The notes under the pieces: generated by a model | What the model was told of the DNA's origin: nothing | The model's input: the letters and a program-made list of their open reading frames with translations, nothing else | Database searches by the model: none | Made by a program: the position numbers and the translations under genes | Origin: Candidatus Eiseniibacteriota bacterium | Lineage (GTDB): Bacteria > Eisenbacteria > RBG-16-71-46 > JABDJR01 | NCBI GenBank assembly: GCA_963783375.1 | Contig: CAWANH010000003.1 | Location: 32,001 to 96,000 of the forward strand | Direction of reading: 5' to 3' | DNA: 64,000 nucleotides | In this document: in pieces, positions 2,507 through 38,045 of the stretch | Position numbering within the stretch: the stretch's first letter is position 1 | Layout of the letters: every line of letters starts with the position of its first letter

Positions 2507-4144
2507 CTACGACGACGAGGAGACCTTCACCCACCGGGCGTCGTTGCTCGGCTTCAGGGGGGTGTTCTCCTGCACGTACTTGGTCAGGGTCTCGAGGTCG
2601 GTGTAGCCGGTGTAGAGGATATCCTCCGGGCTCAGCTCGTCGCGGAGGCGCCACATCCCGCTGTTCCCCTGGGCCAGGTAGTCGGTGAGGGCCACCTTGT
2701 AGGTCTTGTCGGGATCCAGCGGCTGGCCGCCCACGGTGATGTCCACGATCCGGTCCCCGTCCGGGCGGGAGAGGTCGTAGCGAACCTTGCCTCCGGAGAT
2801 GAAGATGCCCCCCGCCTGTCCGGTCAGCTTGTCCTCGAGAATGGCCCGGAGGAGCGACCCCTTCATGTTCACCAGCACCATCTGGTTCCCGAAGGGAGAC
2901 ACCGTCAGGAGGTCCCTCCGGGTGATCGTCCCGGGGGAGATGTCCGCCCGAACCCCGCCGGTGTTCTGGAACGCGAAGTCGGCATTCAGGATCGTCCGGT
3001 AGGCGTCCGCCACCACGAACCCCATGAGGGCGCTGTTGGGCGACCCGCGCTGGAGGAGCACCTCGGTCCGCCCCACCGTCTCTTCCAGCCCCGCCTCCGC
3101 CTTCGAGACCTCGGCCTGGATCACCTCCTTCTGGAGCTCGTCCGGCCAGATCTCGTCCTCGAACAGGGTGACCAGCGCGCCCCGGTCGGCGTGGGTCTCG
3201 AACCCGAGGAGCGACTTGGTGACGGGGTCGATCTTCAGGGTGACGTCCCCGATGCTGGAGCCGTTGGCGTAGGGCTCGAACACCAGGGTGTGGGTCCGGG
3301 GATCCTCCCAGGGCTGGTCGTACCCCTGGTGGGTGTGGCCCCCGAAGATCGCGTCCACGCCCCAGAGCATGTGGGCGATCTCCATGGCGTTCATGCCGTA
3401 GTGGGGAAGCCCGCCGTCCTTCTCCCGCTGGATCATGCGGCGGTACTCGTTGTCCCGCTCCGGCTTGTAGGGAAGGCCGGCGTGCATGAGCACGAAGACC
3501 AGGTCCGCGCCCTCCGCCCGCACCGTTTTCACGTCTTTCTGCAGGGCCTCGAAAACCGGCTCGAACTCGATCCCCTCGATGTTCTTCCCGAAGGACATGT
3601 TGGCGGTGGTTTCGGTGCAGTAGCCGAGCACCGCGATCTTGACCCCCTTGGCGTCGAGCCACACCGGGGAGGGGTCGACCCAGTCCTCGGTCTTCTTGGT
3701 CTTCGCGTCGAGGATGTTGGTTCCCAGGATCGGGAACTTGGCCAGCTCGATCAGACGCTTGGTGTTCTCCCACCCGAGGTCGAAGTCGTGGTTCCCCAGG
3801 GCCACCGCCGTGTAGTCCATGGCGTTCATCCACTGGATGATCGCGGTGCCCTTGGTGTTGATGCCCAGGGGGGTCCCCTGGAAGAGGTCGCCGGAGTCGA
3901 AGAGGAAGACCGGCCGCCCCGCCGCCTTGGCCGCGGCACGCGCGTTCTGGATGTAGGTGGTGGCGGAGGCGCCTCCTCCCAGGGGCGGAGGAAAGTTGGG
4001 GTTCAGGAACGTGGCGTCGTCGTGGGCGATGTGTCCGTGGATATCGCTGGTGTAGAGGATCTCCAGCGAGATCGGAGGCTTCTCGGGGGCGGCCCCCCCG
4101 AGGAACAGAAGCCCGAGGACGGCCAGGATGCTGAATCGCTTCAT
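2507..4144 (-). CDS. Secreted bifunctional metallophosphatase/5'-nucleotidase (UshA-like)
   Basis: Signal peptide; motifs TSDIHGH, DSGDLFQG, GNHDFD, GGHTH; C-terminal NTGGVRA, PFGN, TDYLAQG. Confidence 0.92.
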   Translation of the reverse strand: MKRFSILAVLGLLFLGGAAPEKPPISLEILYTSDIHGHIAHDDATFLNPNFPPPLGGGASATTYIQNARAAAKAAGRPVFLFDSGDLFQGTPLGINTKGTAIIQWMNAMDYTAVALGNHDFDLGWENTKRLIELAKFPILGTNILDAKTKKTEDWVDPSPVWLDAKGVKIAVLGYCTETTANMSFGKNIEGIEFEPVFEALQKDVKTVRAEGADLVFVLMHAGLPYKPERDNEYRRMIQREKDGGLPHYGMNAMEIAHMLWGVDAIFGGHTHQGYDQPWEDPRTHTLVFEPYANGSSIGDVTLKIDPVTKSLLGFETHADRGALVTLFEDEIWPDELQKEVIQAEVSKAEAGLEETVGRTEVLLQRGSPNSALMGFVVADAYRTILNADFAFQNTGGVRADISPGTITRRDLLTVSPFGNQMVLVNMKGSLLRAILEDKLTGQAGGIFISGGKVRYDLSRPDGDRIVDITVGGQPLDPDKTYKVALTDYLAQGNSGMWRLRDELSPEDILYTGYTDLETLTKYVQENTPLKPSNDARWVKVSSSS

Positions 4145-4349
4145 TGCAGTCTCTTCCTCTCCGCCGTATCCGGGCCGGGAGCGGACTCCACGAAACCGGA
4201 GTAGGGACGGCTCAGGGACGGTTCGGGGTCTTGTAGTTCCCGTCCGAAAGCTGGCTCAGGTCACCGCCGGTGCGATGGGCCACGATTGAAGTGGCAGGAT
4301 CGCCGGTCGCCCGGAGACGGATCGCCGCACCCTCTTTGATACACAAGGC

Positions 4350-36388: not shown

Positions 36389-37458
36389 CAATAAGGTCCT
36401 TTCGAGACGGGGCCGGCCACCGTCTCCCCCTCGGCTTCCTTCACGATGCGGACCCCGGCCGAGGCCCCGATGCGGGTGGCCCCCGCCTCGATCATCCCCA
36501 GGGCGTCCACGTAGTTCCTGATCCCGCCCGCCGCCTTGACCCCCATCCCCGGTCCCACCGTGGATCGCATGATGGCCACGTCGCGGATGGTGGCCCCGCC
36601 GGAGGCGAAGCCGGTCGAGGTCTTCACGAACTCGGCGTGGGCGCGCTTGGCCAGGAGGCAGGCCACGACCTTCTCCTCGTCGGTGAGGAGCGCGGCCTCG
36701 ATGATCACCTTCACCAGCACCGACGACTCGTGGCAGGCCTCCACCACCGCGCGGATGTCCTCCTCCACCAGGTCGTAGTCCCCGCTCTTGAGCGCCCCCA
36801 CGTTGATCACCATGTCCACCTCGCGGGCCCCCTCGCGGATGGCCTTGCGGGCCTCGAAGGCCTTGGCCGCCGGGGTGGTGGCCCCCAGGGGGAATCCCAC
36901 CACGGTGCAGACCACGGCCTCGGCCCCGGCGAGTTCCCGGGCGCAGAGCTTGACGAAGCTCGGGTTCACGCACACCGAGGCGAAGTGGTACTGGCGGGCT
37001 TCGGCGCAGAGCTTCTTGATCTGCTCCTCGGTGGCGTCGGGCTTGAGGAGCGTGTGGTCGATGTAGCGCGCGATGTCCCGGGGGACGGCGTGGCTCCCCG
37101 GGGTGCCGCTGAAGCGCGAGGCTCCCGCGGCCACGAAGGACCGCATGGTCTCCGGGCTCTTCTGCTCCGGGGTGGCGCTTCGGGCCCGGTCCTCGGAGTC
37201 GGCGGGGTTCGGATGCACGAACGCGGGCTGGGTGTGGTGTCCCCTGGCCGTGGGCGCGCGCGCGGCGGGAGGCTCGTAGGGCCGGTAGGAGCGCTGGTAG
37301 GCGGTGAGGTCGGCGGCGCGGTCGGGCCGGTCCGCCGGGGACTTGCCGGGGGCATCGGTCGCGGCCGGCGGGGCGTTCGGCGTCTCGCCCCGGGCCTCGC
37401 GGAGCCGGGCCATCACCTCCTGGGTGATCCGGTCGACCAGGGCGTCCCGTTCGCTCAT
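36388..37458 (-). CDS. deoC: Deoxyribose-phosphate aldolase with N-terminal encapsulation peptide and long linker
   Basis: [73 protein letters not shown]. Confidence 0.93.
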
Positions 37459-38045
37459 CGGACCCTCGCCCCCGCCCCGTCCAGGGCGTCGATCTTGGCC
37501 ACCCGCCTCAAGTGGCGCTCCTCGATGCAGTCGGTGGAGAGAAAGGTCTTCACGATCTGGCGGGCCAGGGCGGCCCCGATCAGCCCCGCCCCCAGGGTGA
37601 GCACGTTGGCGTTGTTGTGCTCGCGGGCGTTGTTGGCGGTGGAGAGGTCGTAGCAGAGGGCGGCGCGCGCCCCGGGCACCTTGTTCGCGGCCATCGAGGA
37701 CCCGATCCCCGCCCCGTCCACCATGATGCCGAAGGCGCACCGTCCTTCGGCCACTTCCCGGGCCACCGCCGCCGCGAAGTCGGGATAGTCCACCGCCTCG
37801 GTGGAATGGGCGCCCATGTCCACCGCTTCCCAGCCGATGGTGGGGAGGAACCGCTTCAGGTCCTCCTTCATGGGGAAGCCGCCGTGGTCGGCGCCGACCG
37901 CCACCCGCCGGGCGGCGGTCCCGCCGCTCCGGGGAACGGTCGCGTCGCCGGGGTTTCCCCCTCCCGACACCACCCGCTCCACCACCGAGCGCACGAGGCT
38001 TTCCAACTCCCGATCCTGCAACCCGTCCTCCTCGACTCGATCCAC
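37455..38045 (-). CDS. rpiB: Ribose-5-phosphate isomerase B with N-terminal encapsulation peptide
   Basis: [62 protein letters not shown]. Confidence 0.92.

Follow-up and report, generated by a model that had tools for sequence, protein, structure and literature searches.

Microcompartments of the SPU type are among the most widespread bacterial microcompartments (BMCs), and their substrate in vivo has so far only been proposed. In the published work, deoxyribose-phosphate aldolase (DERA) activity was shown for one SPU enzyme and was deoxyribose-specific, an RpiB-family protein with Cys66 replaced by Asp had negligible ribose-phosphate isomerase (RPI) activity, and DNA breakdown products were put forward as the source of the substrate (PMC11585597). 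The same proposal was made for Asgard shells (PMC12747264), and the end of the route discussed below has therefore already been published as an idea. BMCs of a related lineage have been read as Pdu/Eut-like (PMC11323493), and MIC7 of Eisenbacteria is a deoC-less relative of the SPU type. Here we analysed a stretch of 64,000 nucleotides (the window) from the genome of a Candidatus Eiseniibacteriota bacterium (G000, with contigs C1, C3, C28 and C29 mentioned below), in which positions 2507-38045 hold three modules: an envelope cassette, a nucleoside salvage operon and an SPU microcompartment. We consider it probable, as the best reading of this cluster, that the three make up a route from nucleic acid outside the cell to acetyl-CoA.

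Several described systems resemble parts of the cluster. A tested analogue is ddbABCDEF of Bacteroides thetaiotaomicron, a locus resembling a polysaccharide utilization locus (PUL) that likewise has a surface OB-fold binder (DdbD, of the DUF5689 family, which the 637-aa protein here matches weakly), an outer-membrane transporter and exported hydrolases, with downstream base deamination common to both (PMC12478041). It has a TonB-dependent DdbC, a lipoprotein DdbD and three proven nucleases, whereas the cluster has a 24-strand barrel fused to helix-hairpin-helix (HhH) modules, two small barrels, cargo of the type IX secretion system (T9SS) type, a nucleotidase, no nuclease and a linked sugar-catabolic organelle. 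The 'DNA-degradation loci' of Ca. Izemoplasmatales, supported by DNA stable-isotope probing, also co-locate genes for DNA digestion and import, including an LTD/nucleic-acid-binding protein; as described, they have nucleases and ABC transporters and no outer-membrane barrels or microcompartment (PMC8289736). With ComEA/ComEC and the Riemerella transformation genes (PMC8459023) the cluster shares HhH DNA-binding modules, predicted here to lie on the periplasmic side of an outer-membrane crossing; unlike in competence machinery, HhH is here fused to the barrel, a nucleotidase is the fixed partner and ComEC is unlinked (C29). In the exported ExeM nuclease of Shewanella (PMC6085458), too, a double OB-fold region comes after an LTD, but its EEP catalytic domain is absent from the cluster proteins, which have a sorting domain, or a tail resembling one, at the C-terminus. 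The microcompartment shares with SPU2/SPU3-like loci (PMC8217296, PMC11585597) a DeoC, a Cys-to-Asp RpiB and an acylating aldehyde dehydrogenase, all with N-terminal extensions, the lack of PTAC, and a shell of a BMC-P triplet, BMC-H, BMC-Ts and a CcmP-like Tdp. What differs here is that nucleoside transport and salvage genes and an outer-membrane cassette adjoin it, and that the locus has no PduS. An initial sequence-only reading had not recognised such a front end from SPU loci, and this is borne out: neither paper describes one in its accessible portions, and the terms 'transporter', 'phosphorylase' and 'outer membrane' are absent from the main text of PMC11585597. In the literature searched, which did not cover subscription journals, we found no description of the function of the cassette, of its link to SPU loci or of the three-way join. 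The BMC belongs to a known kind and the salvage genes are nothing unusual, while the cassette is undescribed in that literature; the join is real, but confined to one order.

The modules were defined by listing open reading frames (ORFs), translating them and scanning the proteins against families. Every gene named by the sequence-only reading is present, intact and on the minus strand, and GC at third codon positions was 0.84-0.97 in the cluster ORFs measured. That reading also counted two barrels and took the cluster for a candidate complete one. Five intervening genes, two of them on the plus strand, interrupt it; the barrels number three; and family scans of the cluster proteins turned up neither a nuclease domain nor deoB nor a pyrimidine-nucleoside phosphorylase. 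Read along the minus strand, the first module is the microcompartment (38045-32237), in the order rpiB, deoC, BMC-Tdp, BMC-H, BMC-P, aldehyde dehydrogenase, BMC-Ts and two BMC-P:

37455-38045, minus strand: RpiB-family protein (PF02502), N-terminally extended and carrying the SPU-type Cys-to-Asp change (Cys66); DGAGIGS at residue 110
36388-37458, minus strand: DeoC, the only copy in the genome, with about 125 extra N-terminal residues; PF01791, and TIGR00126 over cut-off from residue 129
34871-35167, 35225-35536 and 35759-36388, minus strand: third BMC-P, BMC-H and CcmP-like BMC-Tdp; three PF03319 in the locus, CcmP model 337.5 bits against a cut-off of 340
33422-34858, minus strand: EutE/PduP-type aldehyde dehydrogenase with N-terminal extension; PRK15398 638.8 bits, cut-off 403; CTTEKE motif at 279
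32782-33408, minus strand: PduT-like BMC-T (family scans)
32237-32509 and 32513-32782, minus strand: two BMC-P pentamers (family scans)

The catalytic motifs of DeoC (DMVIN, KTSTG, GVKAAGG) are present, and reading of the sequences places N-terminal extensions, candidate encapsulation peptides, on DeoC, RpiB and the dehydrogenase. This microcompartment is a standard SPU member, and going by its composition it could be of the SPU2 or the SPU3 type of PMC8217296. Five kilobases upstream of it lies an ADP-forming acetate--CoA ligase-like gene (43001-45151, minus strand), kept in G001, G003, G004 and G006, which could convert acetyl-CoA from the BMC to acetate and ATP; the BMC locus is without PTAC.

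Downstream of the interruption the salvage operon follows (25083-18971), in the order nupC, hpt, amidohydrolase, add, udk and punA:

23713-25083, minus strand: NupC-family nucleoside transporter, the only copy in the genome (family scan)
23048-23611, minus strand: hypoxanthine phosphoribosyltransferase, hpt, the only copy in the genome (family scan and genome search)
21696-23051, minus strand: amidohydrolase nearest 5'-deoxyadenosine deaminase, substrate putative; PRK07228 460.6 bits, under the cut-off of 522
20459-21589, minus strand: adenosine deaminase, add; TIGR01430 over cut-off, motifs intact
19813-20442, minus strand: uridine kinase, udk, the only copy in the genome (family scan and genome search)
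18971-19816, minus strand: purine-nucleoside phosphorylase, punA; PRK08202 over cut-off

Elsewhere in the genome there is a second punA paralogue (C29), and pdp and cdd lie on C1, unlinked to the cluster. nupC and a BMP-type ABC binding protein are mutually exclusive, and one or the other occurs in all five genomes tested for both, so that each retains a means of importing nucleosides. Because purN is present in G000, purine auxotrophy is improbable. Relatives show further genes at the salvage block. An HD plus HD_assoc_2 phosphohydrolase gene stands at its head in G003 (L017:3515-5500) and G005 (L037:713-2053) and was not found in G000, and in the sister family the gene of a short exported protein with nothing but an LTD separates BMC from hpt (L027:735-1454 in G008, L030:9595-10320 in G009). 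A lone BMC-P sits inside an hpt-udk salvage cluster in G042 (L188), with rpiB nearby, and in G058 (L189).

After punA come the genes of two exported proteins of 637 and 739 aa and then a tight run ending in the 5'-nucleotidase, with gaps of 9, 9, 31 and 205 bases from the 1683-aa gene through the 300-, 872- and 431-aa barrels to the nucleotidase:

16862-18775, minus strand: secreted LTD-Ig-OB-OB-like protein, 637 aa, with a T9SS type A tail (Por_Secre_tail over cut-off)
14507-16726, minus strand: family-restricted lipoprotein, 739 aa, with a carboxypeptidase-regulatory-like and a degenerate CehA/McbA-type domain
9217-14268, minus strand: 1683-aa surface protein with signal peptide, enlarged LTD, Ig-like repeats, three related OB-like repeats and a sorting-domain-like tail
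8305-9207, minus strand: PorV/PorP-like small barrel, 300 aa (PorV_fam E 3e-15 and PorP family E 3e-5, under cut-off)
5677-8295, minus strand: HhH barrel, 872 aa, two ComEA-like HhH modules fused to a predicted 24-strand barrel (HHH_3 over cut-off)
4350-5645, minus strand: FadL/BamG-like outer-membrane barrel, 431 aa (BamG E 1e-18 and PorV_fam E 9e-12, both under cut-off; Toluene_X weak)
2507-4144, minus strand: exported UshA-like 5'-nucleotidase, last cassette gene (Pfam Metallophos and 5_nucleotid_C)

The last five genes form an envelope cassette of LTD/Ig/OB-fold surface protein, PorV-like barrel, HhH barrel, BamG/FadL-like barrel and 5'-nucleotidase. The metal motifs of the nucleotidase (DIHG, GDLFQG, GNHDFD, GGHTH) are intact. 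ComEA-type HhH pairs bind double-stranded DNA (dsDNA), and the alignment of the 872-aa protein shows two HhH-type modules whose arginines are invariant, while its profile matches the ComEA structures 8dss, 2duy and 8dfk. Its model (87 sequences; predicted local distance difference test, pLDDT, 83.9) is helical at residues 40-210 and has 24 long strands by manual count; a Foldseek search of this model against the PDB gave generic large barrels only, at TM 0.16-0.32. Family scans gave no TonB-receptor or plug match in this protein, the N-terminus of which is helical HhH in the model.

The small barrel at 8305-9207 is predicted from its sequence to be the surface anchor or shuttle of the upstream cargo protein. 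Sorting-tail scores were 32.3 bits for the 637-aa protein (cut-off 23) and 19.9, under the cut-off, for the 1683-aa protein, and an SprA-like gene (PF14349 over cut-off) occurs in 5/5 genomes. No catalytic domain was found in the 1683-aa protein by family scans. LTD, present in ten of the twelve cargo proteins scanned, is the constant part, and OB repeats are absent in some relatives. In the 637-aa model an OB fold at residues 321-423 aligns with RPA, the AspRS anticodon domain and DNA-bound p204 HIN (Z 11-12, rmsd about 2); searching Foldseek with the whole protein was uninformative, returning mostly unrelated multi-domain beta proteins. This protein also matches DUF5689 weakly (E 0.0023, under cut-off), as do 26 of 54 homologues at E<=0.01. 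The 739-aa lipoprotein was considered as the missing phosphodiesterase and rejected, its histidine motifs being gone; HxH and TDH are lost, yet the protein is kept across the family and is possibly a pseudo-enzyme. Ig-like or OB-like repeats as in the 1683-aa protein recur in other exported proteins of G000, encoded at C3:225060-226829 and on C28 at 706-708 kb and 1097-1099 kb.

Cassette gene order is invariant wherever the contig is long enough. In a metagenome sample (the best 80 of 211 matches, giving 66 loci) the neighbours of the HhH barrel were kept in all testable loci: the small barrel in 47/47, a cargo homologue in 41/41, the 431-aa barrel in 50/50 and the nucleotidase in 23/23. A lipoprotein of metallo-beta-lactamase (MBL) fold, with a HIHADH motif and weak ComEC_Rec2 and Lactamase_B matches, precedes the nucleotidase in 12 of these loci and also in G005 and G006; by gene lists rather than BLAST, a gene of similar size and look holds that position in G004, G119, G121, G139, G161 and G166. 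Two EEP-family proteins with export-like N-termini are encoded on C28 of G000, unlinked to the cluster.

The three blocks lie on one contig in five genomes of the order (G000, G001, G003, G004 and G006). In G002 and G008 the order can be followed across one break between contigs, and G005 and G007 are too fragmented but compatible. G008 belongs to the sister family, with proteins 42-86% identical, and shares with G000 only the run from rpiB to the nucleotidase, the flanks being different; one LTD-only gene lies between its shell genes and hpt. Among 206 genomes of the phylum the cassette occurs in at least 17 (9/10 in the order, 8/196 outside; cassette counts in genomes are lower bounds, with 4-6 candidates scored per genome), deoC in 157, Tdp in 111 and udk in 186. 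Among the matches listed, deoC adjoins Tdp in 10/10 order members and in 11 other genomes; of these 11, one has the cassette, and in none of the nine for which a udk is listed does that udk share the contig. Away from shell genes, deoC was found within deoB-cdd-deoC-pdp in 4/6 loci examined, with a similar N-terminal extension, and rpiB or BMC-P stood beside udk, hpt or add in 5/9 udk loci examined. These other arrangements of SPU parts with nucleoside genes give the route independent support. In a second phylum (G206, labelled Krumholzibacteriia), the cassette was found in at least 65 of 151 genomes and the BMC-type dehydrogenase in 77; the latter is present in 60/65 cassette genomes versus 17/86 others (Fisher p 3e-20), a value that is overstated because kin are not independent and the count is uncorrected for kinship. 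The BMC of that phylum carries rpiB-deoC in 5/7 cassette genomes and 3/4 others examined.

The route that we propose would run in six steps. The 1683-aa and 637-aa proteins would leave the cell via the SprA-type system of the genome, the PorV-like barrel would keep them at the surface, and their OB folds would bind nucleic acid. Fragments may then pass the large barrel and be held on the periplasmic side by the fused HhH modules, by analogy with ComEA. Cutting by a nuclease has no candidate in the cluster; in many relatives it could fall to the MBL-fold lipoprotein of the cassette, and in this genus, which has none, it would need the unlinked exported EEP-family enzymes. Going by what is known of the families, the nucleotidase would yield nucleosides, NupC would import them, and the deaminases and PunA, with the unlinked pdp and cdd products, would free bases for salvage by Hpt and Udk and release (deoxy)ribose-1-phosphate. 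An unlinked, family-specific protein of phosphohexomutase fold may replace DeoB at the next step. DeoC and the dehydrogenase would complete the route in the shell, as the activity of another SPU DERA suggests, and RpiB is probably a packaging partner.

Several observations weigh against this route. The sequence-only reading had envisaged one path from extracellular DNA to acetyl-CoA; all blocks do point to nucleic acid or nucleosides and are linked across the order, but the nuclease and phosphopentomutase steps are missing from the cluster itself and RpiB is the Cys-to-Asp variant reported with negligible isomerase activity. deoB is found in 0/8 genomes of this family and in 2/2 of the sister family, and the deoC-bearing families f15 (0/5) and f16 (0/4) are without both deoB and the extra mutase. 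This mutase, a third phosphohexomutase-fold gene at C1:148412-150205 (L127), occurs in 8/8 genomes of the family and 0/2 of the sister family, with one weak match in the other 51, and its presence mirrors deoB loss within the order. It was not assignable as a phosphopentomutase by similarity, since various phosphohexomutases lead its PDB matches, PPM_Tk 9ix8 standing among them at E 3e-17. We presume it to be 'PGM2-like', a label not used as evidence. Phosphohexomutase-type folds can be pentomutases (PMC11641776). The MBL-fold lipoprotein was not found in a search of G000, where the sole match is ComEC, and DNA is a poor sole carbon source for B. thetaiotaomicron despite its dedicated locus (PMC12478041).

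The physical join itself can be read differently, namely that the modules are neighbours rather than partners: the cassette would scavenge phosphate, nitrogen or bases, salvage would be housekeeping, and the BMC would burn deoxyribose of internal or free-nucleoside origin, one rearrangement having joined blocks that slow genome shuffling then preserved. We think this rather unlikely, and much of the evidence against the proposed route speaks for it. In a synteny control covering 795 kb of the 4.5-Mb G008 genome (285 orthologues in all, those on six background contigs used), 680/1094 orthologue pairs 15-30 kb apart in G008 stay within 40 kb in G000, and per-gene retention was 85/174, or 31/110 without the largest block. 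Background synteny is thus 28-62% at these distances, and synteny as proof of selection had to be rejected; as retention is not above background, the cluster counts as one assembly event, and the join is a single event in the ancestor of the order. The neighbourhood comparison suggested by the sequence-only reading therefore came out divided, with blocks linked across the order but retained at background level there and unlinked in every other lineage examined. Seven cassettes examined outside the order lie among unrelated genes; the 66 metagenome loci hold no salvage or shell gene, with only 18 of them reaching 7.5 kb upstream; all four cases of cassette and BMC on the same contig in the second phylum are 200-520 kb apart. 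G161 has its parts scattered on one contig and a cassette without the BMC-type dehydrogenase, and in G009 BMC and salvage have stayed together, but an insertion of 32 kb separates punA from the 637-aa gene. The BMC is far commoner than the cassette by the phylum counts above, and so does not need it, and udk, hpt and nupC are the cell's single housekeeping copies. The 7-kb interruption, the several transcription units and the lack of any shared operator or upstream motif between units, as far as comparison of upstream regions by eye could see, also fit mere neighbours. On the other side, a chance meeting of three matched blocks is unlikely (naively about 2e-5 for two further blocks each within 10 kb of the first in 4.7 Mb, a post hoc figure for one event), more nucleotide genes have been recruited at the site (nupC, the HD-family gene in G003 and G005, the LTD-only gene in G008 and G009), and the 60/65 co-occurrence comes from a second phylum.

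Two further explanations concern the cassette. It could serve genetic transformation, as an uptake channel that works without a pilus and passes DNA on to the unlinked ComEC, salvage recycling only the degraded strand. The ComEA-type domains, the ComEC and DprA of the genome and the absence of a nuclease from this genome's cassette agree with this, and an HhH protein and DdbC/DdbD homologues are essential for Riemerella transformation (PMC8459023, PMC12478041). Yet the fixed last gene is a 5'-nucleotidase and not ComEC (23/23), ComEC being on C29, two secretin genes could provide a conventional route, and many relatives have an MBL-fold hydrolase inside the cassette; we regard a role in transformation as very unlikely. 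We give least credence of all to the view that the substrate is RNA, short oligonucleotides, nucleotide cofactors or another polyanion, or that the barrels work in secreting proteins or assembling the outer membrane, with an indirect link to the BMC. Neither OB folds nor HhH motifs dictate which ligand is bound, the top OB matches include tRNA-synthetase domains, the G008 cargo protein is without OB repeats, the small barrels resemble PorV and BamG, and UshA-type enzymes are broad; but ComEA-type HhH pairs are established dsDNA binders, and the assayed SPU DeoC is deoxyribose-specific (PMC11585597).

Between nupC and the BMC lie 7,154 bases holding five genes without evident link, the content of which differs among relatives:

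25538-32194, mixed strands: interruption; alpha/beta hydrolase (25538-26446, plus), lipoprotein (26547-27227, plus), and M14 peptidase, DinB-like protein and hybrid kinase on the minus strand

The cluster is several transcription units and not one transcript, because a 13-pair terminator-like hairpin with a T run, kept in relatives, follows the 637-aa gene (16862-18775) and this gene has its own conserved upstream sequence. That region (18870-18930, minus strand) holds a TGTCAAG-N5-TGT(C/G)ATTGAA motif conserved in G000-G004, which may be an operator overlapping the promoter. One operon or regulon is unsupported, the promoter scan being at chance (1 found against 1.1 and 0.8 expected). One RNA run contained 6% of query words, its contigs being short, of low depth and derived from relatives, and was uninformative on expression.

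Around the cluster, a ParE-family gene with a small upstream partner (39645-42000) lies in a patch of lower GC (0.62) between conserved genes and is probably a recent insertion. Downstream of the cassette, 1-2234 (minus strand) is the start of an 1857-aa lipoprotein gene, there in G001, G003 and G004 and not in G006 or G008, which we take, as an assumption and not as evidence, to be alpha-2-macroglobulin-like. DNA-related neighbours comprise two glycosylase-type genes, a short DprA that scores under its cut-off, and an HNH protein, at 38987-39592 (plus), 48197-50317 (plus), 60660-61253 (minus) and 46412-47905 (minus); the two glycosylases are presumably Tag-like and MutY-like, names that carry no weight here. 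In G001 the ORFs of the aldehyde dehydrogenase, M14 peptidase and 739-aa gene are split (L012, L013), as is the large cargo gene in G004 (L020), presumably through assembly errors or as pseudogenes.

The weight of the clustering itself is modest, as one event in one order. Nevertheless, the locus places the cassette and the BMC beside genes of nucleoside transport and phosphorolysis, and so names proteins for each step and a lineage for DNA stable-isotope probing. Should DNA indeed cross the barrel, the known outer-membrane routes, secretins and DdbC-type transporters, would be joined by a third. More tentatively, and short of what we would call likely, this order may have gathered a whole DNA-eating pathway, in which a pilus-free, TonB-free DNA channel with a ComEA-like ratchet feeds nucleosides to an SPU organelle. 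If true, the purpose of the cassette would be food, not genes, and SPU BMCs would gain a missing upstream supply line across several uncultured phyla related to the Fibrobacteres-Chlorobi-Bacteroidetes (FCB) group.

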